Assembly (NCBI GenBank): GCA_003447535.1
Contig: DLYY01000011.1
Span: 1-39,385 of the forward strand
Origin: Bacteroidota bacterium
GTDB taxonomy: Bacteria; Bacteroidota; Bacteroidia; Chitinophagales; UBA8649
DNA: 39,385 nucleotides
Direction of reading: 5' to 3'
Shown here: one piece after another, positions 12,722-37,816 of the stretch
Position numbering within the stretch: the first letter of the stretch is position 1
Layout: every line of letters starts with the position of its first letter
Notes under the pieces: generated by a model
What the model was told of the DNA's origin: nothing
Seen by the model: only the letters and a program-made list of their open reading frames with translations
Database searches by the model: none
Position numbers and translations under genes: made by a program

Positions 12722-14023
12722 ATGGCCGAGTATCGAATTTTAATTCTTGCATATGATTTTCCTCCTAACCTATCTATTGGTGGTCAGCGGCCTTGGTATT
12801 GGGCTAAGTATTTAAACGAACACGGTGTTTACCCAATCATCGTAACAAGGCACTGGGAATCTTCTCTTCGCTCTGCTGCCGATTGCGTCAAGCCAAGCGC
12901 AAGTCAAGCTGTTCAAGACCTCCGTCAAGATACTCATCGAATTATTCGGATACCTTTTAATCCGGGCCTTCGCGATCGAATTTTTTTAAAATATGGGGAT
13001 TCAAAAAGAAGGTGGATTCGCAAAGTGCTTTCTTTTGTAATGACTATAGGTGAAAACCTATTTCCTAGAATTGGTGATAAATACTTCTTGTATAGGGAGG
13101 TTAAGCAACGCATTGCCTCCCTTCATGTGGATGCAATTATGGCAACCGGAGAGCCCTTTGTCTTACACTCTTTTGCTTCTCGTCTTGGCAAACAGTTCAA
13201 CTTGCCTGTTATCTTAGATTATCGAGATGGTTGGACAACTAATCAAGAGAACAAATCGCTGTCCTTTGCCGAACAACTCATACACCTGTCTCACCGCTTT
13301 AGTGAACGAAAAAACCTTACTAGCGCATCTCTGGTTACTGCAGCATCACCATCTTATCTAAAAAACATCTCTACTGAACTAATGCAAAGAGAGCGATCCG
13401 CTGTAATCTATAACGGATACGATGAAGAAGTGGCCAATCACTTAAAGCCTTCAGGTGTAAACGGCACCTTTACCATTGCCTATGCGGGTAGGCTGTATGA
13501 CTATCAGCGCTTAGAAAGTTTTCTCGAAGGACTAAGAATATTTTTAACTCACCATGCAAGCGCAAAAATTAAGGTGGTTTTTTATGGTATGTCCTTTTAC
13601 CCTGAGATGGTCAAGCGAGTAAAACGTTTTCACCAATCATTAGAAGATCACCTCGTGTTCACCGAAAGAATAACTTATTCTGGGTTAATGCAAAATCTCC
13701 ACAGCGCAGATGCTCTATTACTTTTATCTGCACCAGGTGCGGATTGGCTAAGCGCCAAAACCTTTGATTATCTCCCCCATAAAAAGCCAATACTTCTTGT
13801 CGAGGGAGATCAAGGTGTTCTTGAAAGGATTTTAGAAGAAACCTCGCTCGGCTTCATTTGTAATAACGCCAATGATGTTAGCTCCTACATTAAAGAACTA
13901 TATGAAGCTTGGGTAAATACCGGTAAAACTGAGATAGAAGACGCTTCTTCTTCTCATGCCTATACCCGTCAAGCAAGCACTAAACAGCTTGCCGATTACC
14001 TCCTCAATATAAACTGCGTCTAA
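12722..14023 (+). CDS. GT-B fold glycosyltransferase (GT4-like)
   Basis: YRILILAYDFPPNLSIGGQRPWYWAKYLNEHG at the N-terminus. The C-terminal ...DWLSAKTFDYLPHKKPILLV resembles the GT-B donor-binding half. Confidence 0.6.
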   Translation: MAEYRILILAYDFPPNLSIGGQRPWYWAKYLNEHGVYPIIVTRHWESSLRSAADCVKPSASQAVQDLRQDTHRIIRIPFNPGLRDRIFLKYGDSKRRWIRKVLSFVMTIGENLFPRIGDKYFLYREVKQRIASLHVDAIMATGEPFVLHSFASRLGKQFNLPVILDYRDGWTTNQENKSLSFAEQLIHLSHRFSERKNLTSASLVTAASPSYLKNISTELMQRERSAVIYNGYDEEVANHLKPSGVNGTFTIAYAGRLYDYQRLESFLEGLRIFLTHHASAKIKVVFYGMSFYPEMVKRVKRFHQSLEDHLVFTERITYSGLMQNLHSADALLLLSAPGADWLSAKTFDYLPHKKPILLVEGDQGVLERILEETSLGFICNNANDVSSYIKELYEAWVNTGKTEIEDASSSHAYTRQASTKQLADYLLNINCV

Positions 14024-15858
14024 TGTGTGGGGTTGTTGGATTCGTTTCGTTTCGCGATGGGAATAATACGCCGGCACCCAACTTGCTCAAGGGGGTTCTA
14101 AAACACCGAGGGCCTGATCGTTTTGCACACATCCAACTCGGCCCGTGCACATTTTGGCATTTCAGGTTAAGTGTTATCGATCCCACAGATGGTGGCAACC
14201 AACCCCTATCCACACCCTGTGGGCGCTACACCTTAATTTTTAATGGAGAAGTCTACAATTACAAAGCACTTAAAAAACAATTTAACCTTCCCTGTATAGG
14301 TAAATCTGACAGTGAAGTTGTTCTCCTTTTGTTTAATGCAATGGGTGTGGAATCTTTAGCCCTTCTTGAGGGAATGTTTTCCTTGGCAATATGGGACACG
14401 CAGGACAAAGAGCTTACCCTGGCCAGAGACCGAATTGGAATAAAGCCTCTATATTACTCTAAAGTCACTGGCTTAGGTTTTTCATTTGCTTCTGAGTTGA
14501 GAGGGCTTCAGGCATTAGGCCCAACTCGCCCATCCAATAAACACCTTGCAGACTATTTTAACCTTGGCTTTGTTCCAGGACAGAACACCTTGTTTGAAGG
14601 AATTCATCAAGTTAGGCCGGGGTGTTATATCCAACTTAAGGATGGCAAGGTCAATCATCAGGAATTCTACTCGTTGTTTGACCGCGTAAAAGAAAGGCCT
14701 TCTATTCCAACATCTTACGATGGTGCCAAAAAAATATTACGTGAACTAATCTATAAAAGCGTTGAAGATCGGTTGGTTTCCGATGTACCCCTGGGTTGTT
14801 TTTTAAGCGGGGGGGTCGATTCAAGCCTAGTGGTTGCTGTGGCTCAGAATATCCTTGGAAGCAAGCTACAAACGTTTTCGATTGGGTTTAAAGAGGCTGC
14901 GTTCAACGAAGCATATTATGCCGAAAAAATAGCTCACCATCTAGGCTGCGAACACCGAGAAAAGGTCTTTGAGCAAAAGGACTTACTCGACATTTTTTCC
15001 AACTACCTCTCTATGACCGGGCAACCTTTTGGTGATACATCCTTACTACCAACATCCCTTGTTTCCCAGTTTGCCAGAGAGCATGTAACCGTTGCACTAT
15101 CAGGGGATGGGGGAGACGAAGGCTTCTTGGGATATGGTATGTATACCTGGGCAAAAAGACTTGATAATATTCTTTTTCGAAATGCCGGGCGCCTTGCTAA
15201 CCCGCTTGTCAAAAGCCTTGGGAACTCACGATACAAAAGGGCCTTCGGGCTTTTTGAAGACCACAAAAAGGAGAATAGGCAACGTCATATTTTCTCTCAA
15301 GAGCAATATTTATTTAGCCAAAAAGAAATAAGAAGCCTACAAATAGAAAAGTGTAGCTTTTCTTCTCAACCCCCTATTCCGTCGTGGATGAATGCTCAAG
15401 AAAAGCAGGCGTTTTTTGACTATCGCTGGTATCTCCCGGATGATCTTCTTGTTAAGGTAGATCGTGCCTCCATGGCCCAAAGTCTGGAGGTAAGGGTTCC
15501 TCTATTAGATCACCGCATAGTTGAATTTGCCCTTGGGCTGCCGGTACATTGGAAAAAAAGAAACTCAGTAACTAAATATATTTTAAAAGACATCCTTTTT
15601 GACCTAGTGCCAAAAGAATACTTTAATCGGCCCAAGCAGGGGTTTAGTGTGCCTCTTGCTCAATACCTAAAAGGCCCCCTAAGGCCATGGGTCGAGAAAC
15701 ACTTAATGCGTGGGGTTATAGAAAGACATGGCTGGGTTGACGCCAGTGTCGTTGAACAATATAAAACGCGTTTCTTTACAAGGGGAGACAACTACCTATA
15801 CCACCGGATCTTCCTTTTATCCATGCTTCATCAATGGTTGGAAAAGCAAGGTGATTAA
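14023..15858 (+). CDS. Asparagine synthase family glutamine amidotransferase, paralogue 2
   Basis: Starts MCGVVG (Cys2). Contains HRGPD, FNGEVYNY, PP-loop FLSGGVDSS and SLEVRVPLLDH. 611 aa. TAATG junction with the upstream GT. Confidence 0.9.
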   Translation: MCGVVGFVSFRDGNNTPAPNLLKGVLKHRGPDRFAHIQLGPCTFWHFRLSVIDPTDGGNQPLSTPCGRYTLIFNGEVYNYKALKKQFNLPCIGKSDSEVVLLLFNAMGVESLALLEGMFSLAIWDTQDKELTLARDRIGIKPLYYSKVTGLGFSFASELRGLQALGPTRPSNKHLADYFNLGFVPGQNTLFEGIHQVRPGCYIQLKDGKVNHQEFYSLFDRVKERPSIPTSYDGAKKILRELIYKSVEDRLVSDVPLGCFLSGGVDSSLVVAVAQNILGSKLQTFSIGFKEAAFNEAYYAEKIAHHLGCEHREKVFEQKDLLDIFSNYLSMTGQPFGDTSLLPTSLVSQFAREHVTVALSGDGGDEGFLGYGMYTWAKRLDNILFRNAGRLANPLVKSLGNSRYKRAFGLFEDHKKENRQRHIFSQEQYLFSQKEIRSLQIEKCSFSSQPPIPSWMNAQEKQAFFDYRWYLPDDLLVKVDRASMAQSLEVRVPLLDHRIVEFALGLPVHWKKRNSVTKYILKDILFDLVPKEYFNRPKQGFSVPLAQYLKGPLRPWVEKHLMRGVIERHGWVDASVVEQYKTRFFTRGDNYLYHRIFLLSMLHQWLEKQGD

Positions 15859-15864
15859 TATTCC

Positions 15865-17100
15865 ATGGCACGCATTCTATACATAACATTTGATGGTATA
15901 ACAGATCCCCTCGGGAGGTCTCAAATACTGCCCTATCTCACAGGGCTGAGCAGAAAAGGACACAGCATTCACATCTTATCGCAAGAAAAAGAGGGTCAAC
16001 ATGAGCGCGAAGGGGCGGCGGTTCTTGAAAAACTTAAAAACCACAGCATAGCCTGGGACCACATAGAATACAAAAACAAACCACCCCTTATACAGCCCCT
16101 TATACAGCGCCATACGATCAAAAAGAAGGCTGTAAAGATTGTGGCAGCTAAGGCTATAGATCTTATTCACTGCAGAAGCTATATGGCTGGATGGGTTGGC
16201 TTACAGATTAAGAAAAAATCCGGCACTCCCTTTGTCTTCGACATGCGAGGGTTTTGGGCGGATGAAAGAAAGGAGGGCGGATTATGGCCCTACAACAACC
16301 CTATATACCGAATCATATACCACTCGGTCAAGCGACTAGAAAGAAAACTGCTTTTTCATGCCAATCATATCGTGTCACTAACCCATAAAGGCAAGGAAAT
16401 TATTGCTGGGTGGAACCACATTAGAGACTTTAGCGACTTCATATCCGTTATTCCCTGCTGCGCGGACCTAGAGCACTTTAACCCATTGCGCTATTCTACA
16501 AATGATAGAGCGGCTTTACGAACATCATATAGTCTAACCAACGAAGATGTTGTTATCGGATATCTAGGGTCCATTGGGACATGGTATATGCTAGATGAAA
16601 TGTTAGATGCTTTTGCCTTTTGGCACAAACACATTCCTAATTTGAAGCTATTCTTTTTGTCCAAAATCTCGCTGGACGAGTTGAGTCCTAAACTTTTATC
16701 AAGATGCATACCCAATGACTCGGTAAGGGTTTATTCGACCAGCTATGACCGGGTTCCCGAGCATCTTACCCTATTCGATGTGGGGTTGTTCTTTATTCTT
16801 CCTGTGTTTTCTAAATCGGCATCGTCGCCTGTTAAGCAAGGCGAAATGCTTGCTATGGGACTACCCGTGCTGTGTAATCGTGGAGTAGGTGATACCGACC
16901 AGGTCATTGAAGAAATCGATGAATCACTTCTTGTCGACGATTGTAATGAGGTGTACTATGAAAAAGTGCTCCGCGTACTAAAGGATAAAAAATATCGAGA
17001 GTCTTTAGTACCGATGTGCAAGGCGACCGCAAACCGATGGTTCGATGTTAACCACGGAATAGAAACATACCATTCCATTTACACAAAAATCACGCGCTGA
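15865..17100 (+). CDS. Glycosyltransferase, GT4-like
   Basis: ARILYITFDGITDPLGRSQILPYL at the N-terminus (GT4 subgroup found in EPS loci). VKQGEMLAMGLPVLCNRGVGDT in the C-terminal half. Confidence 0.7.
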   Translation: MARILYITFDGITDPLGRSQILPYLTGLSRKGHSIHILSQEKEGQHEREGAAVLEKLKNHSIAWDHIEYKNKPPLIQPLIQRHTIKKKAVKIVAAKAIDLIHCRSYMAGWVGLQIKKKSGTPFVFDMRGFWADERKEGGLWPYNNPIYRIIYHSVKRLERKLLFHANHIVSLTHKGKEIIAGWNHIRDFSDFISVIPCCADLEHFNPLRYSTNDRAALRTSYSLTNEDVVIGYLGSIGTWYMLDEMLDAFAFWHKHIPNLKLFFLSKISLDELSPKLLSRCIPNDSVRVYSTSYDRVPEHLTLFDVGLFFILPVFSKSASSPVKQGEMLAMGLPVLCNRGVGDTDQVIEEIDESLLVDDCNEVYYEKVLRVLKDKKYRESLVPMCKATANRWFDVNHGIETYHSIYTKITR

Positions 17101-18088
17101 ACGGATGTTTTTTCTGTTGACTGCTTAATAGAGGGTGTGCTTCTTCGGGGTCTTTAGGTAGACTGGGTGTAACGCCTCGCATTTTGGTAAGAATTTCTAT
17201 GGCGGGTTGTGCATCAGCCAAAGAGCAGCCCTTATTGTTTAATATGTCTTTGTACACTTCTGTGTGAAGGTCCATAAAGCCATCACTAAAAGTAACCTCT
17301 TGATTGTCTATCCTAAGACTTCTGTAGCTTCCCGTAGCTGTTTTGCTCTGACCCTTTGGAACTATATCACCATCAATAGATAAAAAATAACGCACCCTTG
17401 CGTCCTTAAATAGAATGTGCCCTGCTTCTCTGTCGTGGCTTCGTGCATGGACTTTAAAATCTAGTGCGGGACCCAAGGCCCACAACAGCATATCAAAAAA
17501 ATGAATACCTATATTGGTTGCTAACCCACCAGACTTTTCTTGAATACCTTTCCAAGAAGCATAGTACCAATTTCCCCGTGGAGCTATATAGGTTAAATCA
17601 ATTACTGCAGGTGATGGGGGTTGGGAAGCACTTGCGAACGCGCTTTTCCAAGCGATCACTGAGGGGTGTTTGCGAAGTTGTAAAATCGGATGAACCCTTT
17701 TTCCCGACTTAGATTGAAGCTGTAGCAGGCCCTCTAGGTTTCTTGAGTCTACCACAATAGGTTTTTCGCAAATTACCTCCATGTCTTGGCGTATACCAAA
17801 GCGTATATGGGCATCATGAAGGTGGTTTGGACTACAAACCACAAGATGCGTAACTGGCAAACCTAGCTGTCTTTGTTTGTCTAAAAAACGGTCAAATCGC
17901 TCGAATGAAGTAAAAAAGTGCGCGGCTGGGGCGTACTGATCAAGGATACCTATGCTATCATTAACATCATATACTGCAACCAACTCATGACCCAAATCGT
18001 GTATAGCCTTATAGTGACGTGGTGCAACATATCCTGCACCACCAATAAGAGCAAACCGCTTGGGAATATGTAGCTTTTTTTCTTCCAT
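17090..18088 (-). CDS. Gfo/Idh/MocA family NAD-dependent sugar-nucleotide oxidoreductase (WbpB/WlbA-like)
   Basis: The ATG at 18088 (MEEKKLHIPKRFALIGGAGYVAPRHYKAI, Rossmann GxGxxA) forms an ATGA overlap with the upstream acetyltransferase stop. The longer track ORF (to 18145) would overlap by 58 nt. The EKP motif (VICEKPIV) is present. Confidence 0.8.
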   Translation of the reverse strand: MEEKKLHIPKRFALIGGAGYVAPRHYKAIHDLGHELVAVYDVNDSIGILDQYAPAAHFFTSFERFDRFLDKQRQLGLPVTHLVVCSPNHLHDAHIRFGIRQDMEVICEKPIVVDSRNLEGLLQLQSKSGKRVHPILQLRKHPSVIAWKSAFASASQPPSPAVIDLTYIAPRGNWYYASWKGIQEKSGGLATNIGIHFFDMLLWALGPALDFKVHARSHDREAGHILFKDARVRYFLSIDGDIVPKGQSKTATGSYRSLRIDNQEVTFSDGFMDLHTEVYKDILNNKGCSLADAQPAIEILTKMRGVTPSLPKDPEEAHPLLSSQQKKHPFSA

Positions 18089-18672
18089 CACACAATTATT
18101 ACGCCTTTTAGGGTAAGCCGATACAACTCTCCGCTTTCTGGGCAATTAGCCTCATCTCCTGATTTACTTAGCGATAATCTATGTCCTGACTTGCTTACCC
18201 AACCCTTGTGTCTTGCAGGGTTACCGTAAACCAACTCATAAGGCTTAATGTCTTTTGTTACCACAGATCCTGCACCGACAAAACTATGAGATCCTATTTC
18301 TATTCCGCACACAATGGTTGCGTTGGCGCCGACGGTAGCCCCCTTTCTAACTATTGTTTTTTTATACTGGTCTTTTCGCACGATATGAGCCCTTGGATTC
18401 ACTACATTGGTAAACACCATAGACGGTCCTAAAAAGACATCATCCTCACAAATCACGCCTTCATAAATTGAGACATTATTTTGAACTTTAACATTGTTTC
18501 CTAGAACACATTTTGAGGCTATAAAACACCCCTGGCCGATGGTACATGACAATCCGATTTTCACATCCCTCATAATGTGGGAAAAATGCCAAACCTTCGA
18601 ACCCTGGCCGATTTGTGTCGGATAATCAATTACCACAGATTCGTGTACAAATACTTTTGTTTTATCTATCAT
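18088..18672 (-). CDS. Left-handed beta-helix (hexapeptide repeat) N-acetyltransferase (WbpD/WlbB-like)
   Basis: Repeated [LIV]-G-x4 hexapeptides (IGQGSKV, IGLSCTIGQGCFI, LGNNVKVQNNVSI, VGANATIVCG, VGAGSVV) and C-terminal YGNPAR. Size (194 aa) and pairing with a Gfo/Idh/MocA gene match the 3-amino-sugar N-acetyltransferase pattern. Confidence 0.8.
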   Translation of the reverse strand: MIDKTKVFVHESVVIDYPTQIGQGSKVWHFSHIMRDVKIGLSCTIGQGCFIASKCVLGNNVKVQNNVSIYEGVICEDDVFLGPSMVFTNVVNPRAHIVRKDQYKKTIVRKGATVGANATIVCGIEIGSHSFVGAGSVVTKDIKPYELVYGNPARHKGWVSKSGHRLSLSKSGDEANCPESGELYRLTLKGVIIV

Positions 18673-18688
18673 AACTTGGTGCTAACCA

Positions 18689-19255
18689 TTAAATGGGTTT
18701 TGGTGTAAAATATGGCCTAAAAAAAGAGATTACAACCAAAAAAAGTGCCCCATATATCATAAGAATATACGTGTAGGAGTGACTAAAGTAAAAGAATTGT
18801 TCCCACTGGGCATACAGCATAAAGCCCAAGGTGGTTATCCGAAACCAATTTAGGAAAACGATTGTGGCCATGGCAACCGCCCAGTATTTCAATCTTCTTG
18901 GTAGCGGAAGGGGGTTCCACAAAAAAACCATAGTCATGATGGCCATTGGGGCAACACCAACACAGTGAAATGCCACAAACATTGGTGGAGATGCGGGAAG
19001 GAAAATATTTTGAGAGTTTACAAGAACCGGAGCTTGTATAAAAAACTCCAAGACGGGCTGGGCTAACGATATATAAAACGTTGAAAAAAAAATGTGGAAA
19101 TCATCCCAGTGGGGGCGAAGTAACCCCGACTTTTCCATAATCTCCCGAAATGAAAACCAAACAAGATATATAACAAGTATTCGAACGAAAAATGCAATGT
19201 ATCTTGAGGATTCATCTTGATGTCCTTTAAGGGAAAAAAATTCTTTGAAGTTCAT
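18689..19255 (-). CDS. Exosortase/archaeosortase family integral membrane protein (XrtF-like)
   Basis: Polytopic membrane protein carrying the three ordered exosortase signatures: FHCVGV (Cys, codon 18962-18964), FLNWFRIT (NxxRI Arg, codon 18839-18841) and FSHSYTYILMIYG (His, codon 18779-18781). The track ORF extends to 19312. I prefer the ATG at 19255 (MNFKEFF...) because it removes the overlap with the divergent gene. Confidence 0.6.
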   Translation of the reverse strand: MNFKEFFSLKGHQDESSRYIAFFVRILVIYLVWFSFREIMEKSGLLRPHWDDFHIFFSTFYISLAQPVLEFFIQAPVLVNSQNIFLPASPPMFVAFHCVGVAPMAIMTMVFLWNPLPLPRRLKYWAVAMATIVFLNWFRITTLGFMLYAQWEQFFYFSHSYTYILMIYGALFLVVISFFRPYFTPKPI

Positions 19256-19286
19256 GTCAACTATGAAGCAAAGCAACAAAAAAGTA

Positions 19287-20381
19287 ATGGAAAAGAATAG
19301 GAGACTTCTCATATTATGTCCCTATCCGAAAGGATGTGCAGGTTCTCAACGCTTTCGTTTTGAACAATATCTTCCCTTTTTGGAGGCTAACAACATAATC
19401 GTTGACCAGCAGTCTTTTTTAACAAGGTGGGGGTGGACTGTTGTGTATAAAGACGGCTATAGCTTGTTTAAAATATGGGCCACGCTATTAGGTTTTTTGC
19501 GTCGCTTTTTTGGTTTGTTTTCTCTATGGCGCTATAACCTTGTTATGATTCATCGAGAGGCAAGCCCAATTGGCCCCGCCATTATTGAGTGGTGGATTGC
19601 TCGCATTGCAAAAAAAAAGATCATCTATGATTTCGACGATGCGATTTGGATAAATAACACCTCAAACCCTTGGATTTCCTGGCTGAAAAACCCTGAGAAA
19701 ACAAAGCGTATTTGTAAATGGTCATCTGTTGTTTATGTTGGAAACCAATATCTCGCTGATTTTGCAACTCAGTACAACGACAATGTCTTCATTATACCGA
19801 CAACAATAGATACCGAGCATCATCATAACATCACTAAAAAACATATTAAAAACAATAAAAATAAGGCGGTCTGTATCGGTTGGACAGGCAGCCATTCTAC
19901 CCTGCCCTATCTCAAGAACGTTGAGGGAGCTTTAAAAGCAATCCAAGACAAGCACAATGTCTGTTTCAAAATTATAGCAGATAAGGCGCCACAAGAGCTG
20001 GCCATTCCTTATGATTTTGAAGAATGGGATATCATGCGTGAAATTGACCAGTTGCGGCCCATTGATATAGGTATTATGCCCCTTCCTAATGAGGAGTGGG
20101 CAAAAGGAAAGTGCGCTTTTAAAGCGCTACAATACTTAAGCTTGGGCATCCCTTGTATTGCATCGCCCGTGGGTGCCAACAAAACCGTTGTGCTCGCAGA
20201 CCATACCGGTCTCTTGGCCGAAACGGAAAACGAGTGGATTGAAGCAATAGAGCGCCTCTTGCTAGATCATGCTTTAAGAATTCAGTTGGGAGAGGCGGGA
20301 AGAAAGCATGTCCTGCAGCGTTTTTCCGTTTTAAGTCAACACACCGTGTTTGTTCACAACATAAATACACTGACGCTATAG
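19287..20381 (+). CDS. GT-B fold glycosyltransferase
   Basis: The internal ATG at 19287 gives MEKNRRLLILCPYPKGCAGSQRFRFEQYLPFL; the track start is 19245. C-terminal CAFKALQYLSLGIPCIASPVGANKTVV is a GT-B donor-site-like segment. Confidence 0.65.
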   Translation: MEKNRRLLILCPYPKGCAGSQRFRFEQYLPFLEANNIIVDQQSFLTRWGWTVVYKDGYSLFKIWATLLGFLRRFFGLFSLWRYNLVMIHREASPIGPAIIEWWIARIAKKKIIYDFDDAIWINNTSNPWISWLKNPEKTKRICKWSSVVYVGNQYLADFATQYNDNVFIIPTTIDTEHHHNITKKHIKNNKNKAVCIGWTGSHSTLPYLKNVEGALKAIQDKHNVCFKIIADKAPQELAIPYDFEEWDIMREIDQLRPIDIGIMPLPNEEWAKGKCAFKALQYLSLGIPCIASPVGANKTVVLADHTGLLAETENEWIEAIERLLLDHALRIQLGEAGRKHVLQRFSVLSQHTVFVHNINTLTL

Positions 20382-21740
20382 GGTCTGAGCCTCTTCTTGC
20401 TTGTTTGTTCGAAGAGAGTAAAGCCCGGCTAAAACGATTCCAACCGTTGGCAAGCAGGGTATTTTGTAGCGCACAAGAGCACCAAAATTATACGCAGTAA
20501 ATCCCACAGCAAAACCGAATATTATTGAAAAAAGTAATGAGAATTGCAGAATTGGGTGTTGCTTAAAAATACGAGAAAGAGTGTATTCTGGGTTTTTGTT
20601 TGATTGAAAAAAGACCAAAAACCCTATGGAAAACAAGGCCAAAGATTCCAAAGAGCTCAAGGCCATGAGTAGATTGCTAACCTCCCATGGAAAGGGTCTA
20701 AAAAAAGTAGTTATCAAAGCGACCGGGGCCTTGGTTATCAAACCAACTGTTGAAAAGTCCGTGTTGCCCAAACTATAGGATGAGCCTTCGTAATCATAAA
20801 CTTCTTCGACTTGATGGTGCCACTGCTGCATGGCTTCAGCCTCGTATTGAAGATTCTCTACTGAATACCGGCCCAGTATATTCCCCAACTGAGATAATAA
20901 AACCAAGGATATGAGGATGGCACCTGTCGCAAGAACAGGATTTAACGAGCTTGAGGCGGCACTTGAGGATGAAAGTCTTTTCTCGGCAGTATACCATAAA
21001 AAAGCCGCCGGCACGAAGGCTACCAAAATATAGCTTTTTATAATGACAACGAAGTATGCGATTATCAGCATGACTACAATGTTTCTAATCCTATTTTCGC
21101 GCAATATGACGCCGCGATAAAAACAAGCAACCACCCATGTTATACCCCCCAGAGTAAGCGTATCCTTCAATAATCCACTACCCCAAAACACTACCGAGGG
21201 AAACAATAATATAGCAACACCTAAATATGTTTTTGAAACCTTCGGGATTGCGACACAAGCTATTCGGTACAGCTGCCACAAGCCAGAAAAAGCAAAAACA
21301 GAAAAAATCAAAGCAACGTTTGTGTAGATACCAAAGCATACTATGTTAGCTATGGCGGCAATTCGAACGACCATATATGATGCGGTGTCATATGCTCGCA
21401 ACGATGTCATTAAAAAATAGGTTTCGCCCGCCTCGTCTGGGTACGCAGAAAAAACAAGCTTTAATCCAAGAAGAAAATCACTTTTTAGAACACTAGAGAT
21501 TCTGAGCATTCTTTCATAATAGTATACTGTATCGCCATCTTGATAATAAAACCAGTAGATGGCACCGATTGCAAAAGGGCTAATCAATTTTACCAAAAGG
21601 CCTAGGTTAAACATTCTACGGTCATCTGAATCGGGAAACCTTGATGAAATCCTAAGCCCTATAAACAATATTATGCCCACATATACAGGACCGATAATAA
21701 AATCCAATAACTCCACGGTTTGAATATACGTCTTTACCAA
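20376..21740 (-). CDS. Polytopic integral membrane protein of unknown family; candidate Wzy-type polymerase or GT-C-like enzyme
   Basis: 454 aa with at least 10 hydrophobic segments and one large soluble loop (…GRYSVENLQYEAEAMQQWHHQVEEVYDYEGSSYSLGNTDF…FFRPFPWE). TTG start at 21740, with no in-frame ATG until codon 43. I recognise no family motif. Confidence 0.7.
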   Translation of the reverse strand: MVKTYIQTVELLDFIIGPVYVGIILFIGLRISSRFPDSDDRRMFNLGLLVKLISPFAIGAIYWFYYQDGDTVYYYERMLRISSVLKSDFLLGLKLVFSAYPDEAGETYFLMTSLRAYDTASYMVVRIAAIANIVCFGIYTNVALIFSVFAFSGLWQLYRIACVAIPKVSKTYLGVAILLFPSVVFWGSGLLKDTLTLGGITWVVACFYRGVILRENRIRNIVVMLIIAYFVVIIKSYILVAFVPAAFLWYTAEKRLSSSSAASSSLNPVLATGAILISLVLLSQLGNILGRYSVENLQYEAEAMQQWHHQVEEVYDYEGSSYSLGNTDFSTVGLITKAPVALITTFFRPFPWEVSNLLMALSSLESLALFSIGFLVFFQSNKNPEYTLSRIFKQHPILQFSLLFSIIFGFAVGFTAYNFGALVRYKIPCLPTVGIVLAGLYSLRTNKQEEAQTL

Positions 21741-21762: not shown

Positions 21763-23634
21763 ATGTGCGGTATCGTTGGTTGGATTGGAAATAATGCTCC
21801 GTTAAGCAGCGAGGAGTACCTCGTTGCTGTAAACTCGTTGAAACATCGTGGACCTGACCACGGCAATCACGTTGTCTTCGGTAACAACGACTTTCTCGGC
21901 CATAGGAGGCTTGCAGTTGTTGATCTTGACGCTAGGTCAAACCAACCCATGAAAAGCCCGTGTGGGCGCTACTGGCTTGTGTATAATGGGGAGTTATTTA
22001 ACCATGAAACATTAAGGCAATATTTATTAAACCGTGGTGTGGGCTTTCAAACATCGTCTGACACCGAAGTGCTTCTTCAGGGCCTTATAACTTATGGTGA
22101 AGATTTTATTGAAAAGGTTAATGGTTTTTTTGCCTTTGCTTTTTATGATACCCTAGCCCAAGAAGTACTTCTTGGTCGCGACCGAATGGGAATTAAACCC
22201 CTCTATATCTTTCATTCAGATGATGGACTTCGTTTTAGTTCAGAACTCAAAGCACTTAAAAGCCTTCGCGTACCTTTTCAAATCAACCCACAGGCGCTGA
22301 ATGAATACCTCTTATACAGTTATGTTCCCGAGCCGCTCTGTTTAGTTAATGGAGTTGTTAAGCTCGCTCCAGGCACAACATTACGCTATTCAGCGAAGAA
22401 GGGTGCAATACAAAATCGCTATTATAGCATGGACCAAAGTGCGAGCCAACAGAAGCTTTCATTTACTGAGGCTGCCATAAAGTGTAAAGAAAAAATAGAA
22501 CACGCCGTGGGGCTTCGAATGGTGGCAGACGTACCCATCGGGTCGTTTCTAAGCGGTGGAATTGATTCGTCGATCATTGCTTCAATTGCCCAAAGGCTTC
22601 ATGGTGGCATACAAACCTATTCCATCGGGTTTGAGGGGCGGAACTTTTTTGACGAAACAAACGCAGCTAGACGGACCGCTGTCGCCCTTGGCACAAAACA
22701 CGAAAACATTGTATTATCCGATGACAAAATCTTTAATCAATTAGACCTCTTTTTTGATGCCATGGACGAGCCCTTTGCGGACTCGTCGGCAATCAATGTA
22801 TTTCATTTATGTAAACAGGTTAAAAAACACATTACTGTGGCGTTGAGCGGTGATGGGGCCGATGAAGTTTTTGGGGGGTATAACAAGCATCGTGCTCTCC
22901 TCATGAGCCTAAACCCCGTTTATAGAACCTTGCTCACCGCAATACGCCCCCTCTTGGGGCCAGGGGTGTCCAGCCGTGGCTCTATGCTTCGAAACAAGGC
23001 CAGACAACTTCATCGACTTAGTCTTGGTGTCAGTAAAGGCTCTAGGGCGCGATATGCCTATTGGGCGGCGTTTTCAAACCAAAATGATATACATCGTGCA
23101 CTCATAAATCCGTGGCAAGGAAACCCCTCTTTTTATGACCTCTTGCCTAAAAAAATAGAATGTCTTAATGACTTTCTGTATGCTGATCAACGCATTATCC
23201 TGCCGTCTGATATGCTTGCAAAAGTCGACAAAATGTCAATGGCCTCAAGTCTTGAAGTGCGGGTTCCTTTTTTAGACCATCATGTTGTTGGTCTTGCGAA
23301 CTCTCTCCCATCCTCATTCAAAATAAAGGGTTCCGTAACGAAAAGACTTCTTCGCAGAGGATTTGAAAGTGATTTGCCTTCAGAGGTTTTTCGTCGGCCG
23401 AAACATGGGTTTGAGGTTCCACTAGAAGAATGGACAAGAACTGTTTTTTCTGATAGAACCGAACAATTCATACAGAAAGACTTTCTTGATGCACAAGGTC
23501 TATTTTTACACAAACCATTGCGGCAAATCTTTGAAACTAACCAAAAAGAAGGCCAGGCAGAATCAAGCGCTTTTCTTTATTCCTTCCTAGTGTTTCAAGA
23601 GTGGTGGGCGCGTATAAATTTAATCGATGGGTAA
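21763..23634 (+). CDS. Asparagine synthase family glutamine amidotransferase, paralogue 3
   Basis: Starts MCGIVG (Cys2). Contains HRGPD, YNGELFNH, PP-loop FLSGGIDSS and SLEVRVPFLDH. 623 aa. Confidence 0.9.
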   Translation: MCGIVGWIGNNAPLSSEEYLVAVNSLKHRGPDHGNHVVFGNNDFLGHRRLAVVDLDARSNQPMKSPCGRYWLVYNGELFNHETLRQYLLNRGVGFQTSSDTEVLLQGLITYGEDFIEKVNGFFAFAFYDTLAQEVLLGRDRMGIKPLYIFHSDDGLRFSSELKALKSLRVPFQINPQALNEYLLYSYVPEPLCLVNGVVKLAPGTTLRYSAKKGAIQNRYYSMDQSASQQKLSFTEAAIKCKEKIEHAVGLRMVADVPIGSFLSGGIDSSIIASIAQRLHGGIQTYSIGFEGRNFFDETNAARRTAVALGTKHENIVLSDDKIFNQLDLFFDAMDEPFADSSAINVFHLCKQVKKHITVALSGDGADEVFGGYNKHRALLMSLNPVYRTLLTAIRPLLGPGVSSRGSMLRNKARQLHRLSLGVSKGSRARYAYWAAFSNQNDIHRALINPWQGNPSFYDLLPKKIECLNDFLYADQRIILPSDMLAKVDKMSMASSLEVRVPFLDHHVVGLANSLPSSFKIKGSVTKRLLRRGFESDLPSEVFRRPKHGFEVPLEEWTRTVFSDRTEQFIQKDFLDAQGLFLHKPLRQIFETNQKEGQAESSAFLYSFLVFQEWWARINLIDG

Positions 23635-24820
23635 TCAAAAAATTCGTGTTTTGCGCATAGCTAATCGGCTCAACATTGGGGGTCCAACGTATAACGTATG
23701 CTACCTAACAAAGCATCTTGGTGACTCCTATGAAACCATGTTGGTTGTTGGGCAGGAAGACTCTTCAGAAGGCAGTTCATTGTACATTGCAAAGTCAATG
23801 GGGCTTTCCCCAAGGCTTATCCCTTCCATGCGGCGCTCCATTAATTTGAGTCGAGATCGGAAAGCATACCGAGAAGTCCGCAAGATTATTCGTGAGTTTA
23901 AGCCTCATATAGTGCACACTCATGCAGCGAAAGCTGGAGCAATAGGGCGCTATGCCGCCTATAAAGAAAAGGTTCCTGTTGTCCTTCACACTTACCATGG
24001 GCATGTTTTCCATTCCTATTTTAACAAGATAAAAACAAGTGTTTTCTTGGCCATTGAGCGTTTCTTGGCACGCAGAAGTAGTGTCCTTATTGCAATCAGC
24101 CCTTTGCAGAAAAAAGAACTTTCAGAAGACTACAAAATTGCAAGCAACTCTAAGTTTCGCACAGTACCGCTAGGTTTTGACTTAGAGCGATTTTTCCAAA
24201 ACATGGACAACAAGCGTAATGCATTTAGGGAATATTGGGGCCTTGGTGATGATGTATTAGCTATTGCCCTTGTCGGGCGGCTTGTTCCTATAAAAAATCA
24301 CCCTTTCTTTTTAGAGTCAATATCTTATGTAAAAGGCAATACAAAGAAAAAATTTCAGGTCTTTCTCGTTGGGGATGGTGAAGAGAAGAATGATTTAATG
24401 ACCCTGTGTGATAAATTAAACCTGTCCCATAATTTTGTGCCTGATTCAAGTGTTGATGTTGTTTTTACCTCCTGGATTTCGGAGGTAGACCAAGTTTTTG
24501 CCGGTATTGATCTAGTATGTCTCTCTTCGAAAAACGAGGGTACACCAGTCAGCCTTATTGAGGCTGGTTGTGCTGGCAAACCATTTATCTCAACAGATGT
24601 GGGTGGTATTCGTGATCTTTTAATAGACCCCGAACAAGGTATCGTTACTCCTCAAAAAAATATTGAAGCATTTAGAAGTGCACTTCTAAATTGGGTTATA
24701 ACAGCTAATCCTGGGCAAGGTTTAGATCTTGATGTTCGTAAGAACCTTTCAAAAAGGTATAGTTATAAACAACTATGCTTTGAAATGTCAAAAGTCTATG
24801 AAGAATTGCTTCCTTCATAA
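23627..24820 (+). CDS. Glycosyltransferase, GT4 family
   Basis: IRVLRIANRLNIGGPTYNV at the N-terminus. SSKNEGTPVSLIEAGCAGKPFISTDVGGIRDLL is the EX7E motif. 8-nt overlap with the preceding amidotransferase. Confidence 0.85.
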   Translation: MGNQKIRVLRIANRLNIGGPTYNVCYLTKHLGDSYETMLVVGQEDSSEGSSLYIAKSMGLSPRLIPSMRRSINLSRDRKAYREVRKIIREFKPHIVHTHAAKAGAIGRYAAYKEKVPVVLHTYHGHVFHSYFNKIKTSVFLAIERFLARRSSVLIAISPLQKKELSEDYKIASNSKFRTVPLGFDLERFFQNMDNKRNAFREYWGLGDDVLAIALVGRLVPIKNHPFFLESISYVKGNTKKKFQVFLVGDGEEKNDLMTLCDKLNLSHNFVPDSSVDVVFTSWISEVDQVFAGIDLVCLSSKNEGTPVSLIEAGCAGKPFISTDVGGIRDLLIDPEQGIVTPQKNIEAFRSALLNWVITANPGQGLDLDVRKNLSKRYSYKQLCFEMSKVYEELLPS

Positions 24821-24842
24821 TCAATATGTTGCTTTATATTCA

Positions 24843-25616
24843 ATGACTGTGAGAAGCCTTCAAATTATAAGTATTATCCTGTTGTTTAGTTCGTGCAAGC
24901 TGCTCGTTCCTGACAGAATGTTTAGAAAGGGAGATTTTCAGCAATTTATAAGCGAAAAAGACCAAATTGAAGACTATTCCATTCGGCCCGGTGATGTTAT
25001 TCGTCTGCAGCTATATACCCAAGATGGGTTCCCTATTCTAGATGCCCTTAAAATGGAAACCTCTCAGGGAGCACAAGGTTCGCGATCTGTGCAAATTGGC
25101 AACCTTGTGTCTTTTCTTGTCACCCAAGATGGATATGTTGACCTTCCAATTTTTGGAGAAACTTATGTTCAGGGGATGAAGGATCAAGAGCTTGAAAGTT
25201 TTTTGGAACAACGGGGTACAGAGTTATTTGTAAATCCGTTTGCAATAGTCTCTGTGTTGGGGCGGCGCTGTATGGTCTTTCGCGGAGGAAAAGCTTCTAT
25301 TATTTCCCTAGAGACTAGACCAACCACTCTTCTCGAGGTTATTGCACGCAGCGGGGGCTTAAATCAATATGATCGAGCCGACAAGATTCAAATCATTCGA
25401 GGAGATTTAAAAGATCCCCTCTTATATGAAATAAACCTTTCTGAAATATCTGGACTAAAAGATGGGGGGCTAATTGTACAGAGCAATGACATTATTTACA
25501 TAAGCTCTCGTCCTCGAGTAATAGCAAGAGCTAGTAATGAAATATCCACGGTTACCTCGTTGCTTATATCTTCATCATCGTTGTTAACAACCATATTGCT
25601 CCTTCGCCAACAATAA
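24843..25616 (+). CDS. wza: Outer-membrane polysaccharide export lipoprotein (Wza/OPX family)
   Basis: The ATG at 24843 gives MTVRSLQIISIILLFSSC, a signal peptide plus lipobox Cys; the track ORF starts upstream at 24729 inside the previous gene. Poly_export-type YSIRPGDVIRLQLY, followed by SLBB-like ...VIARSGGL...IQIIRGD... Confidence 0.8.
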   Translation: MTVRSLQIISIILLFSSCKLLVPDRMFRKGDFQQFISEKDQIEDYSIRPGDVIRLQLYTQDGFPILDALKMETSQGAQGSRSVQIGNLVSFLVTQDGYVDLPIFGETYVQGMKDQELESFLEQRGTELFVNPFAIVSVLGRRCMVFRGGKASIISLETRPTTLLEVIARSGGLNQYDRADKIQIIRGDLKDPLLYEINLSEISGLKDGGLIVQSNDIIYISSRPRVIARASNEISTVTSLLISSSSLLTTILLLRQQ

Positions 25617-25632
25617 ACCAGATTCCTAGCGC

Positions 25633-28077
25633 GTGTCCGAAAACAAAAAACAAACATCCGCGATATTTTATGATCGCTTTAATGCTGGACTTCTAGTACA
25701 TGTCTTGCGCAAGTCGTTTAAATGGTTCTTTTTGTTTATGCTTCTATCGTCTGGGGTTGCGCACATTTTTCTTCACTTTGCAACCAGAGTCTATGATTCA
25801 AAAGGAGTAATAATTCATATTGGAGGGGAGCAAAAACAAAACTTATTGGGCTTTGATAGAGATTTTCAAAAACAATTCACAAACACTGACTTTCAACAAG
25901 ATATTAGGGTTCTTACGTCTCCACTTGTTATAAACAACGCATATTCAGACAAGGGGTTAAATCTTCTGTTTTACGACGTTGGTAATTTCCGATCTCTCGA
26001 AATCTACCCAAACCCATATTTTTCAGTCGACAGCTTTTATCAGGCACCTGAATTGACAAAGATTAATATTGATTATCATATGTTTTTAAGTCGGAAGAAA
26101 GACAGTATCCGGCTTGAATACATCTATAAAGGAAGTACTTGGGGTGGACACTTAAAACCAGGAAAGCCATTTATTGATGAAAATATATTTATATCAATAT
26201 CCAATTTTGATGAGTCGTTATTGACCGATGAATTCGAAGGTGAAAAAAACATTTTCTTTAACGTTTATGATAATAATCGCCTCGCCGATGAAATGTTATC
26301 AAACATAAAAATTGAGCCCAATAAAGAAACATTTTCTGTTGCGATCACCGGAAAACATCCCAGCAAAGCGAAAGCTTTAGTCATGGTAGATTTACTCATA
26401 GAGTCATTCTTGAATTTTCATTTGTATCAAAAAACGGAAAGTATTAAACAATCGATATCCTTTCTTGATGAGCAAATTGATTCTATAAAACCGCTATATG
26501 ATGAGGCACTTGTCGCTGTTCGAAATGCCGAAGCGCAAAAGGGGTACCGTAACATTGAGGCACTGGGTGGCGGGCTCTATGCAGATGTTAAAAATCTACA
26601 ACAAAAACTTGTGCGTCTTGATTATCTAATAAGTGTTCTTGGGTGGTTCGCTGTGATGGTTGAACAAGAAGAAGATCTCAGTCTTGCGAGTACTCAATTA
26701 TCAGGAGCTGATTTTGAAGGAATCATTAATGGCCTGTCTGTGAGTGAGATTTTAAATCTTGAGGCTGAAAAAGAAAAAGCCCTAATGCAGGTTACTCCCG
26801 AACATCCCGCTATTGTACTCATAGAAAGAAACCTTGATAAAGCACGCGTCACGCTTGTGGCTCAAGTAAGAATAAACATTGAGCGATATCAACAGGAAAG
26901 GCAATTAATGATAGATGAAATCAATAAAATTCTTGAAGAATTAGATGTGCTACCATTGTTTGAAGCCGAATATCTGAGACTAAAAAGAGACTATGAGACC
27001 AAGGCGATGTTTTACAACAACCTTATTGAGAGGAAGTCTTCTTTCTCATTATCCAAAGCGGGTATTGTAAGTGACTACACTATTCTAGAGAACCCAAAAA
27101 TTGCAAAAAATCATATAAGCCCAAATGATAGCTTTATTCGATTTGTTGGGTTGGCGATTGGTGCTATTCTTTCACTTATTTTGGTGGTCTTTCGATATAT
27201 AACACACAAAGAAATTATCAATATTGAAGACGTTACTTCCCAAACTGAAACAGCCCTTCTTGGGGTTATACAACGCTATTCAGAGAAACTTCCTATGTCA
27301 TCAATCGTTGTGACCAATCGTCCTAAAAGTGGTATTTCTGAATCGTTTAGGGGCGTTCGAAGCAATCTAGAGTTTTTAGCAGCGGAGAAGAATTTTCGTT
27401 CTATTGCAGTTACTTCAACGATTCCTGGAGAAGGAAAAACATTTGTAGCTATCAATCTTGCTGCCATTATTGCCATGCAGGGCAAGCGTGTGCTATTAGT
27501 GGATGTAGATTTAAGGAAGCCCCGTGTACACAAGATCTTTAACCTTCCTAACTCAGCTGGAATGAGCACTCTCCTTAATAAGCGCTCAATAAAAGAGGAT
27601 GTTACTTTCTCTACGTCAGAGGAAAACCTCTGGGCAATTCCCGCAGGACCTATTCCGCCCAACCCCTCTGAGCTTATTGGTGGAGATTCCTTTGTCAACT
27701 TTATTGAAGAAATAAAAACTTCATTTGATGTTCTCGTTTTCGACACCCCTCCTATTGGGTTGGTCACAGACTCCATACCTGTAATAAGCAAGGTAAATAA
27801 TCCTATCTATGTGATGAGGGCAGATTATTCTCACAGATCATTCGTAGGACACATTGAGTCTACTAAAGAAAACCTTCAGATTCCTAATCTATCCATCATA
27901 GTGAATGACTATGGACGGGGCGTTTCTGGATCTTATTACAACTATGGATACGGGTACGGATATGGATATGGATATGGATATGGGTATGGGTATGGGTATG
28001 GGTATTACTCCGATCCCGACGAAACCAGGGAAAACGAGCGCACCGGTTTCTTTTCGCGGTTTCGAAAAAACTCTTAA
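25633..28077 (+). CDS. wzc: Polysaccharide co-polymerase / BY-type tyrosine autokinase (Wzc, PCP-2a architecture)
   Basis: GTG start. TM1 (FKWFFLFMLLSSGVAHIF) is followed by a periplasmic coiled-coil region of about 450 aa, then TM2 (FVGLAIGAILSLILVVF). Kinase domain has Walker A TIPGEGKT, Walker A' LLVDVDLRKP and Walker B VLVFDTPP. C-terminal Tyr cluster YYNYGYGYGYGYGYGYGYGYGYGYY. Confidence 0.9.
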   Translation: MSENKKQTSAIFYDRFNAGLLVHVLRKSFKWFFLFMLLSSGVAHIFLHFATRVYDSKGVIIHIGGEQKQNLLGFDRDFQKQFTNTDFQQDIRVLTSPLVINNAYSDKGLNLLFYDVGNFRSLEIYPNPYFSVDSFYQAPELTKINIDYHMFLSRKKDSIRLEYIYKGSTWGGHLKPGKPFIDENIFISISNFDESLLTDEFEGEKNIFFNVYDNNRLADEMLSNIKIEPNKETFSVAITGKHPSKAKALVMVDLLIESFLNFHLYQKTESIKQSISFLDEQIDSIKPLYDEALVAVRNAEAQKGYRNIEALGGGLYADVKNLQQKLVRLDYLISVLGWFAVMVEQEEDLSLASTQLSGADFEGIINGLSVSEILNLEAEKEKALMQVTPEHPAIVLIERNLDKARVTLVAQVRINIERYQQERQLMIDEINKILEELDVLPLFEAEYLRLKRDYETKAMFYNNLIERKSSFSLSKAGIVSDYTILENPKIAKNHISPNDSFIRFVGLAIGAILSLILVVFRYITHKEIINIEDVTSQTETALLGVIQRYSEKLPMSSIVVTNRPKSGISESFRGVRSNLEFLAAEKNFRSIAVTSTIPGEGKTFVAINLAAIIAMQGKRVLLVDVDLRKPRVHKIFNLPNSAGMSTLLNKRSIKEDVTFSTSEENLWAIPAGPIPPNPSELIGGDSFVNFIEEIKTSFDVLVFDTPPIGLVTDSIPVISKVNNPIYVMRADYSHRSFVGHIESTKENLQIPNLSIIVNDYGRGVSGSYYNYGYGYGYGYGYGYGYGYGYGYYSDPDETRENERTGFFSRFRKNS
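27943..28008 (+). repeat. In-frame hexanucleotide tandem repeat (TAY-GGN)x10 plus TAT-TAC, encoding the (YG)10YY tail of Wzc
   Basis: Read directly: tat gga tac ggg tac gga (tat gga)x3 (tat ggg)x4 tat tac. The perfect sub-arrays are (tatgga)3 and (tatggg)4. Confidence 0.95.
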
Positions 28078-28097: not shown

Positions 28098-29177
28098 ATG
28101 CAGCAACAAATATATTGGGTCCTTTTGTTTGTAGCTATCTTTCTTTTTGGTTCTGCCACTCATGGACTATTTCTCAGGTTTAGTCGGGGGCTTGGTGTGA
28201 GACAACCCGCTGCCCTTGGACAAGAACGATGGAGCGCAAACGTTAAACCTTCTGTTGGCGGACTAACCTTCTTTATTTGCTTTAGCATATCAATCAGCCT
28301 TTTACCAATAGATGGTCTCAATGTCTTAAGTGAGCTAAAGCGGACTTCTTTCACCGCAGCTTGTTGTCTTGGTTTCTTACTTGGCTTAGCAGACGACACC
28401 TATGATACTGTACCTATTTTTAAGTTCATCGGTCAGGTGTTGTGTGGGCTAATCTTGTGCTTAGGGGGTATTGTCATTGAGTTCAGTAGTATTGAGATTA
28501 TAGATTATTCCCTGACCACATTTTGGGTAATTGCCATTATGAACTCCATTAACATGTTGGATAACATGGATGCAATAACCACCTCTGTTTCAATTGCTGT
28601 TTTAATCGTTGCTATTATAATGGCTTTTCTCATTGTTTCGCCTAGCCTTTGGGTTTATCCTTGTATAATTGGGGTGTTGGCTAGCCTCATCGCCTTTTTA
28701 CCGTTTAATTGGAATCCTGCCAAGATATACATGGGGGATACAGGGTCCCAGTTCCTTGGTGTGTTTTTAGCCGGTTTGGGGGTTGAATTATTTTGGAACC
28801 ACAGGGTCAATTATGGAGGAATTTTTCAAGTACAGCAATTCATGATTCCCGTGCTTGTATTTGCGGTTCCCATAATGGATACGATTACTGTTTTTTTACG
28901 TCGCTTACTTCTAAAAACATCTCCATTTGTTGGGGGTAGAGATCATTTGGCTCACCATTTAGTGTATTGCGGTTTTTCTGAGCAGCGAGTTGCTGTTGTT
29001 TTGTTTTTGCTATCCATTGTGTTTGGCATTCTTTCCCTCAGTTTTTTCTTTGAGCAATACCCATTTAACTTATCCCTTTTGGGTTGGTCATTTGTTTTGC
29101 TTAATGTTTTTCTTATTGTTTTTTTCGTTTTACAAATACTGTATAATCGGGGAGCCGAGAAAAAGAGCGAGAGCTAA
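28098..29177 (+). CDS. Polyprenyl-phosphate HexNAc-1-phosphate transferase (MraY/WecA PNPT family), initiating enzyme
   Basis: About 10-11 TM segments. Contains LGLADDTYD (DDxxD), NSINMLDNMDAI (variant of NAxNxxDGxDG) and GGRDHLAHHL (DxxHHH-type motif). Confidence 0.85.
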   Translation: MQQQIYWVLLFVAIFLFGSATHGLFLRFSRGLGVRQPAALGQERWSANVKPSVGGLTFFICFSISISLLPIDGLNVLSELKRTSFTAACCLGFLLGLADDTYDTVPIFKFIGQVLCGLILCLGGIVIEFSSIEIIDYSLTTFWVIAIMNSINMLDNMDAITTSVSIAVLIVAIIMAFLIVSPSLWVYPCIIGVLASLIAFLPFNWNPAKIYMGDTGSQFLGVFLAGLGVELFWNHRVNYGGIFQVQQFMIPVLVFAVPIMDTITVFLRRLLLKTSPFVGGRDHLAHHLVYCGFSEQRVAVVLFLLSIVFGILSLSFFFEQYPFNLSLLGWSFVLLNVFLIVFFVLQILYNRGAEKKSES

Positions 29178-37379: not shown

Positions 37380-37408
37380 ATGAGATTATTATATACTATC
37401 TTTGATTT

Positions 37409-37807: not shown

Positions 37808-37816
37808 CGTTGCGGT

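Follow-up and report, generated by a model that had tools for sequence, protein, structure and literature searches.

A small exosortase-family protein of an unnamed Bacteroidota clade, encoded in a polysaccharide cassette beside a GT-C-like membrane protein

A mini-exosortase gene within a glycan locus

The window analyzed here comprises positions 1 to 39,385 (39 kb) of contig DLYY01000011.1, from assembly GCA_003447535.1 of a member of the Bacteroidota. Within its glycan locus lies a minus-strand gene, xrt (18689..19255), that specifies a mini-exosortase of 188 amino acids (aa) counted from Met20, the frame being open to 19312. After a gap of 16 nt (18673–18688) it is followed on the same strand by a homolog of WbpD/WlbB-type UDP-2-acetamido-3-amino-2,3-dideoxy-glucuronate N-acetyltransferases (18088..18672, minus strand; PDB 3mqg, E = 3.8e-62; Hexapep domains), and this in turn by a homolog of WbpB/WlbA-type UDP-GlcNAcA 3-dehydrogenases (17090..18088, minus strand; PDB 3o9z and 3oa2, E ∼3e-82; GFO_IDH_MocA domain). 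The ATG of wbpB overlaps the stop codon of wbpD by 1 nt, and an identical overlap is present in a second locus, L001: xrt heads a tightly packed xrt–wbpD–wbpB unit. A preliminary description, made from the letters of the window, had placed the gene at the head of a unit with an acetyltransferase and an oxidoreductase; the spacing and the identity of the two enzymes bear this out, but the link proves specific to the window's lineage (see below).

The same description had reported an open reading frame (ORF) of 207 aa carrying the exosortase residues Cys117, Arg158 and His178. The ORF is present at 18689..19312 (minus strand) and the motifs lie exactly as claimed, the first residues of FHCVGV, NWFRI and FSHSYTYILMIYG being 115, 155 and 176, respectively; a fourth signature residue is Asn155. 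The likely start of the protein, however, is Met20. Relatives at 69–75% identity contain no ATG upstream of the equivalent position, and the additional N-terminal hydrophobic segment of the 207-aa form would break the positive-inside pattern by moving a K/R-rich segment to the wrong membrane face; both points favor the 188-aa form, in which the signature residues become Cys98, Asn136, Arg139 and His159. With this start a single CATG (19253–19256) is common to the ATG of xrt on the minus strand and that of a divergent glycosyltransferase gene, GT378, on the plus strand, so that the promoter and leader of each gene would fall within the coding sequence of the other. The same back-to-back layout is found in L001. 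A scan of 16.9–21.9 kb for sigma-70 promoters and terminators returned counts equal to the shuffled expectation, the sigma-70 scan being uninformative for Bacteroidota.

Membership of the exosortase family, also proposed in the preliminary description, was examined with profile models. The NCBIfam exosortase/archaeosortase signature TIGR04178 (cut-off 23) is matched at 39.8 bits (E = 4e-10; 40.1 bits for the 188-aa form), and Pfam PF09721 (Exosortase_EpsH) at 24.7 bits, just below its gathering score of 25.7; precomputed PF09721 matches are present on homologs at 69–95% identity. An exhaustive hidden Markov model (HMM) search of 1.84 billion representative proteins yielded just 40 relatives with E-values no higher than 1e-3. 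When 32 of these (16–31% identity to the window protein) are aligned, the sole invariant columns are Cys, Asn, Arg and His. Invariance at such low identity argues that the exosortase signature is real and under selection, and together with the TIGR04178 match it identifies the product of xrt as a genuine exosortase-family protein.

Resemblance to XrtF, which had been suggested in the preliminary description, did not survive. The XrtF model (TIGR04128, 90 bits required) fails to match the window protein even at E≤10, although it gives weak matches to 30 of the 32 aligned relatives; identity with XrtF was rejected on these scores. Models for XrtA and for the eight-transmembrane EpsH proteins, including TIGR02602, do not match the window protein either, and the ArtA model TIGR04125 does so weakly (E = 1e-3). 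The best-scoring named subfamily is XrtX (NF046081), at 48.6–48.9 bits against a cut-off of 170; XrtY (NF046083) reaches 25.3–26.4 bits against 160. XrtX is the top model for all 32 aligned relatives as well, and the ten nearest relatives score 71–107 bits with it, none of them reaching any subfamily cut-off. The likeness to XrtX-like proteins includes the length (the model has 168 positions), the order of the helices and the Cys…Asn-x-x-Arg…His signature, but the window protein stays far below the cut-off, and the XrtX-like relatives examined are found in genomic contexts other than the polysaccharide cassette. Because the scores lie below all subfamily cut-offs, the NCBI models would name the window protein and these relatives merely ‘exosortase/archaeosortase family protein’; the closest deposited homolog, from a marine Saprospirales metagenome-assembled genome (MAG), is labelled ‘hypothetical protein’. 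A literature search found no mention of XrtX or XrtY. The protein belongs to a small, unclassified and hitherto unnamed clade of mini-exosortases from Bacteroidota whose sister is the XrtX-like group. It thus represents a new subfamily within an enzyme family already known, in the exopolysaccharide (EPS) locus context that defined that family.

XrtF (Fjoh_1448) is paired with a small partner protein (TIGR04127; Fjoh_1449), and like the window protein it is a small Bacteroidota exosortase without a known PEP-CTERM-type substrate. The window gene differs in being flanked by a glycosyltransferase gene and wbpD, with no small partner gene. TIGR04127 is unmatched in the 29 larger ORFs of the window, which include everything from 493 to 30237, and neither an ‘Xrt-associated’ NCBIfam family nor a conserved small membrane ORF occurs beside xrt in the window, L004, L006, L008, L090 or L091. 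Of the models named in the preliminary description, PF09721 thus fell narrowly short of its gathering score, and XrtF and its associated protein went unmatched.

Hydropathy and the helices of an AF2 model mark the exosortase as a polytopic membrane protein. The model, built on the 32-sequence alignment with high confidence (pLDDT 93.8, pTM 0.86), places helices at residues 15–42, 47–73, 101–113, 118–148 and 152–183 and a hairpin at ∼77–92; as modelled, the protein would consist of four or five membrane helices and a short extracytoplasmic helix–hairpin cap. Throughout the family the N-terminal tail, the loop between helices 3 and 4 and the C-terminal tail are rich in K/R, and residues 43–97 are acidic. 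This distribution of charge suggests an N-in/C-in topology with helix 47–73 and the hairpin capping the outer face. This would bring Cys98, Arg139 and His159 close to the outer leaflet, the place expected for the action of a sorting transpeptidase.

The exosortase clade and its polysaccharide cassette

The preliminary description had called the gene an orphan and had proposed that the neighborhoods of its homologs be compared. The comparison proved informative and the label misleading: the clade is fixed inside one Bacteroidota cassette made up of genes for a GT-C-like membrane protein, a GT1-like and a GT4 glycosyltransferase, often an AsnB-like amidotransferase, and Wza, Wzc and WecA. In the window GT378, a GT1/GT4-like glycosyltransferase gene (19254..20381, plus strand; Pfam Glyco_trans_1_4 and Glycos_transf_1), diverges from xrt. 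It is followed by the gene for the GT-C-like polytopic membrane protein of 446–454 aa (20376..21716, minus strand; to 21740 for the 454-aa form). Next come, all on the plus strand, the third of three AsnB-like amidotransferase genes (21763..23634; assigned by Pfam, with TIGR03108 at 448.9 bits, below its cut-off of 816.9), the GT4 gene GT4_397 (23627..24820), a gene for a Wza-like outer-membrane polysaccharide export protein (24729..25616; Poly_export), one for a Wzc-like chain-length/tyrosine autokinase (25633..28077; Wzz, GNVR and P-loop domains, TIGR01007 at 152.9 bits against a cut-off of 108) and one for a WecA/WbpL-like initiating polyprenyl-phosphate sugar-phosphate transferase (28098..29177; PF00953). 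On the other side of the xrt–wbpD–wbpB unit lies a further GT4 gene, GT411 (15865..17100, plus strand).

Close relatives of the exosortase (75% identity) share the entire locus with the window. More telling are three divergent lineages. P0012 (25% identity, locus L004) is encoded in the order WecA–Wzc–Wza–GT4, a 440-aa membrane protein, a GT1-like gene and xrt, followed by housekeeping genes; this locus, with no WbpB, WbpD or AsnB, carries a minimal version of the window cassette. In the case of P0011 (31% identity, L008) the genes for a 440-aa membrane protein and the exosortase overlap on the same strand, and P0019 (L009) is preceded by Wzc–Wza–GT4–AsnB, a 446-aa membrane protein and two glycosyltransferases. 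Full-length orthology between the window and these three loci holds for the 454-aa protein (33–38% identity), GT378 (37–45%) and GT4_397 (48–51%). Wza is kept in all three and in L100 and L108; orthologs of the third AsnB-like protein occur in L009, L100, L108 and others, making it part of the cassette in most lineages; and WecA stands at the cassette end in L001 and L004. On a neighbor-joining (NJ) tree of the exosortase alignment the window clade groups with P0011, P0012 and P0019 (25–32% identity between lineages), and the gldB-linked P0013 and P0016, together with P0018 and P0022 from other contexts, branch elsewhere.

A metagenome scan with a clade-specific alignment added 17 further loci. 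In six of them (L094, L095, L099, L100, L106 and L108), those with at least about 4 kb of sequence on the cassette side of xrt, a GT-C-like gene was again found within about 6 kb of xrt; the sole exception is L109 (25% identity), which lacks it. Gene order near xrt varies among lineages, which indicates that linkage to the cassette has been maintained through rearrangement. All carriers found so far are uncultured MAGs, mostly marine.

The most constant neighbor of the exosortase clade is the GT-C-like protein. The 454-aa window protein has no NCBIfam match and a sub-threshold match to DUF2142. Its AF2 model (pLDDT 83.6) retrieves DPY19 in Foldseek with probability 1.0 and ArnT, AglB and PglB with 0.84–0.91; because the accompanying E-values are weak (0.03–1) we call it GT-C-like rather than GT-C. 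The family has invariant motifs (YYxxGD, PSVFFWGSGLxKD, RPxxWE and NFGALxRYKIP) and numbers at least 404 proteins, all labelled ‘hypothetical’; its genes occur at no fewer than 592 species loci, in Chitinophagales, Cytophagales and Hymenobacter among others. The 440–460 aa membrane protein of the cassette thus represents a very large, wholly unannotated GT-C-like family of Bacteroidota.

The association was also analyzed in reverse, from the 80 best genome loci containing the GT-C-like gene, with up to 10 kb on either side where the contig allowed. An exosortase-like ORF occurs in just one, an 80%-identical relative of the window; the other 79 contain no exosortase within 10 kb, even at E≤10. 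Of the 80, 58 have a GT378-like gene, in most cases immediately adjacent to the one of the 454 family. Without xrt, the backbone GT4–AsnB–454–GT378–GT411 is found in L016, L041, L052, L064, L065 and L079, flanked, where the contig reaches, by WecA, Wzc and/or Wza; L011 has the same backbone genes, but with AsnB downstream. In the exosortase-less loci L011, L016, L041, L052, L064 and L065 (but not in L079) GT411 comes immediately after GT378, and it is exactly between these two genes that xrt–wbpD–wbpB sits in the window. This adjacency implies that the exosortase is an accessory insertion and has no core part in the synthesis or export of the polymer; likewise, 79 of 80 cassettes without an exosortase imply that the polymer can be made and exported in the absence of the enzyme. 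An NJ tree of the GT-C-like family groups the exosortase-linked members loosely, interleaved with exosortase-less ones, and fits one gain followed by losses or several gains.

The xrt–wbpD–wbpB arrangement is specific to the window's lineage. A second lineage, whose exosortase is 31% identical, has a WbpB homolog (47–50% identity to that of the window) less than 3 kb from xrt and no WbpD homolog (L099, 6726–7691; L104, 2977–3942; L108, 12451–13419). Among the 79 exosortase-less cassette loci WbpB lies within 10 kb of the GT-C-like gene in one (L034).

The XrtX-like mini-exosortases show a second recurrent context: gldB, encoding a gliding lipoprotein, a gene for a family-less protein of ∼290 aa, and the exosortase gene, on one strand and tightly spaced (L006, 8067–10564; L090, 257–2717). 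This arrangement may be another unrecognized exosortase partner system.

Proposed role of the exosortase

We propose, with a probability of roughly 0.55, that the protein is an outer-face sorting transpeptidase with cargo encoded elsewhere in the genome, and that it is accessory to glycan synthesis, serving to decorate or anchor and not as one of the steps of that synthesis. As has been proposed for other exosortases, the enzyme would act on one or more secreted proteins by cutting off a C-terminal sorting signal composed of a motif, a transmembrane (TM) helix and a basic tail. It would then transfer the new C-terminus to an acceptor in the envelope, and the cargo would be exposed along with the polysaccharide that the surrounding locus produces. 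For archaeosortase A (ArtA), experiments support both the processing of such a tripartite signal and a requirement for the conserved Cys and Arg in catalysis, as related in PMC9263693 (citing Abdul Halim 2018). ArtA shares the superfamily, to judge by the weak TIGR04125 match, but it is a larger archaeal protein with S-layer glycoprotein substrates, and no PGF-CTERM-like tails were seen here. Mutants of XrtF lose biofilm formation and surface colonization (PMC10936215), a phenotype that would fit a display role for Bacteroidota mini-exosortases.

Several points weigh against this proposal. No substrate has been identified for XrtF (PMC10936215). A scan for C-terminal hydrophobic segments with basic tails covered every ORF in the window and in 11 related loci (each of up to about 21 kb, at most 10 kb on either side of the gene) and found no candidate substrate, meaning a protein with a signal peptide and a C-terminal motif, TM helix and basic tail. 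Its hits were confined to terminal helices of polytopic proteins, spurious short ORFs and the exosortases. The exosortase has no solved relatives by sequence, and none by Foldseek better than E = 3 in the PDB copy searched. Finally, we know of no substrate for any named Bacteroidota mini-exosortase (XrtF, XrtX), so that positing a protein substrate means extrapolating from XrtA, ArtA and rhombosortase. The lack of substrates in the window itself is nevertheless expected and does not count against a protein substrate, since the genes for the substrates of exosortases usually lie elsewhere: exosortases are found together with EPS loci, and PEP-CTERM proteins lie mostly in separate single-gene operons (PMC1569441). 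The window contains no PEP-CTERM proteins and no PrsK, PrsR or PrsT; here the preliminary description, which had seen neither a partner-like small ORF nor a PEP-CTERM-like tail in the window, agrees with the NCBIfam and tail scans.

An alternative, which we consider unlikely, is that the exosortase acts on the glycan pathway itself, joining a protein or lipid to an amino sugar of the polymer with a free amine derived from the Wbp pathway as nucleophile. Such a reaction would resemble that of PorU, the Bacteroidota transpeptidase that amide-links type IX secretion system (T9SS) cargo to a Wbp/Vim amino-acyl sugar, and that works with the product of WbpB, WbpD and an AsnB-like amidotransferase; a similar acceptor for exosortases was speculated upon by Veith et al. 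(PMC7468200). The close packing of xrt with wbpD and wbpB (16-nt gap, 1-nt overlap), the abundance of AsnB (WbpS-like) genes in these loci and, as a weak hint, the presence of WbpB beside xrt in two divergent lineages as against 1 of 79 exosortase-less cassettes all speak for it. However, the WbpB enrichment rests on those two lineages, and the exosortase and cassette occur without WbpB or WbpD in the well-covered loci L004, L009 and L106; neither gene is seen in L008, although its contig of just 6.6 kb says little. WbpD, moreover, would acetylate, and hence block, the 3-amine. The likeness to PorU is one of function: PorU is an unrelated outer-membrane-associated protease, and the window has no WbpA, WbpE aminotransferase, VimA (a FemAB-like aminoacyl transferase), VimF or T9SS component. 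Less probable again is the more specific proposal that the cleaved C-terminus is attached to a Wbp-type 2,3-diamino uronic acid, or to a uronamide, of a lipid-linked or nascent polysaccharide handled by the GT-C-like enzyme.

It is doubtful, and less probable still, that the exosortase processes or partners a membrane protein of the locus, chiefly the 454-aa GT-C-like protein, either by cleaving its tail or by joining it in a complex through which periplasmic glycosyl transfer is modulated. No neighbor is more constant than the GT-C-like gene, which overlaps xrt in L008, and the C-terminus of its product bears a superficial resemblance to a sorting signal, with a proline motif (‘RYKIPxLP’), a hydrophobic stretch and basic residues. 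Yet this motif is invariant throughout the family, the 79 exosortase-less loci included, and so is not a specific sorting signal; the tail, modelled within the fold, forms the final helix of a polytopic protein; and exosortase-linked copies show no distinguishing feature. We accordingly rejected the ‘RYKIPxLP–TM–basic’ tail as a cryptic signal. An obligatory partnership was likewise rejected in the forward direction, with an exosortase in 1 of 80 GT-C-like loci, and kept in the reverse direction, from exosortase to GT-C-like protein.

That the exosortase is a catalytically dead or decaying remnant, persisting by linkage, is very improbable. It forms a long, fast-evolving branch (25–32% identity between lineages, against 48–51% for the GT4 neighbors) and may have been lost from related cassettes. 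Against this, neither the catalytic residues nor the motifs around them vary, every lineage has kept an intact reading frame, the fold prediction is of high confidence and linkage to the cassette has been retained despite rearrangement. It is scarcely credible that the protein is a canonical XrtF, or another named subfamily member (XrtX, XrtY), lying in the locus by chance: it shares its size (∼180 aa) and phylum with XrtF and XrtX-like proteins, and 30 of its 32 aligned relatives match XrtF weakly, but the TIGR04128, XrtX (48.6 of 170 bits) and XrtY (25 of 160) scores, the failure of all ten nearest relatives to reach a subfamily cut-off and the absence of the XrtF-associated partner beside xrt speak against it.

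For exosortases in general the acceptor to which substrates are attached is still unknown (PMC7468200). The clade described here is tied unusually tightly to one defined cassette and so offers a small, delimited set of genes in which to pursue the question. If a glycan-coupled transpeptidase were indeed at work, it would put a name to the long-sought exosortase-type acceptor and constitute an inner-membrane counterpart of the PorU-dependent attachment to anionic lipopolysaccharide (A-LPS) in Bacteroidota. Two considerations limit these prospects: the carriers are uncultured, and it was by the presence of an exosortase in an EPS locus that the family was first recognized. The XrtA/EpsH–PEP-CTERM system (Haft 2006, PMC1569441) has just such a locus, with GT4s, AsnB-like, Wza-like and chain-length/tyrosine-kinase proteins and a polysaccharide deacetylase, and several neighbors of the window xrt have XrtA-system families as their top NCBIfam models (the amidotransferase TIGR03108, the glycosyltransferases TIGR03088 and TIGR04063, the exporter TIGR03027 and the kinase TIGR03018), all of them far below cut-off (419–470 bits for TIGR03108, which requires 816.9; no more than 111 for TIGR03088, which requires 409). 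The window protein differs in being ∼100 aa shorter, with fewer helices, and in belonging to Bacteroidota, and its cassette is mostly exosortase-less. What refines the founding observation is the constant GT-C-like neighbor.

Other features of the window

The remaining contents of the locus are as first described: three AsnB-like genes, a sulfotransferase gene and the export genes Wzm/Wzt and Wza/Wzc were all found. The AsnB-like paralogs (2676–4529, 14023–15858 and 21763–23634) are each followed by a GT4 gene and have TIGR03108 as top model, below its cut-off; this suggests that uronic acids of the polymer are amidated repeatedly. Two sets of export genes are present, an ABC-2 exporter of Wzm and Wzt, the latter with a Wzt_C carbohydrate-binding domain (493–2657), and Wza with a kinase-type Wzc (24729–28077); no Wzx flippase or Wzy polymerase is recognizable by Pfam in the window. 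The locus may serve two polymers or use a hybrid export route. Just beyond the cassette, after crcB, lies a gene for a short polysaccharide deacetylase (29680–30237, minus strand; 185 aa) that weakly matches TIGR03006, the deacetylase model of the XrtA system, at 30.7 bits against the 276 required.

Further along (34230–38239), a 1049-aa ORF without Pfam or NCBIfam match is followed by genes for an RsbW-like anti-sigma kinase and YbeY. The equivalent region of L004 (14085–18326), with an ORF of 1117 aa, HATPase_c_2 and YbeY, is syntenic with it, which indicates that the two organisms are related. GC skew, ∼0 over the glycan locus, jumps in the interval 35001–39000, to 0.33 at 35–36 kb and 0.11–0.22 beyond, coinciding with the 1049-aa ORF.

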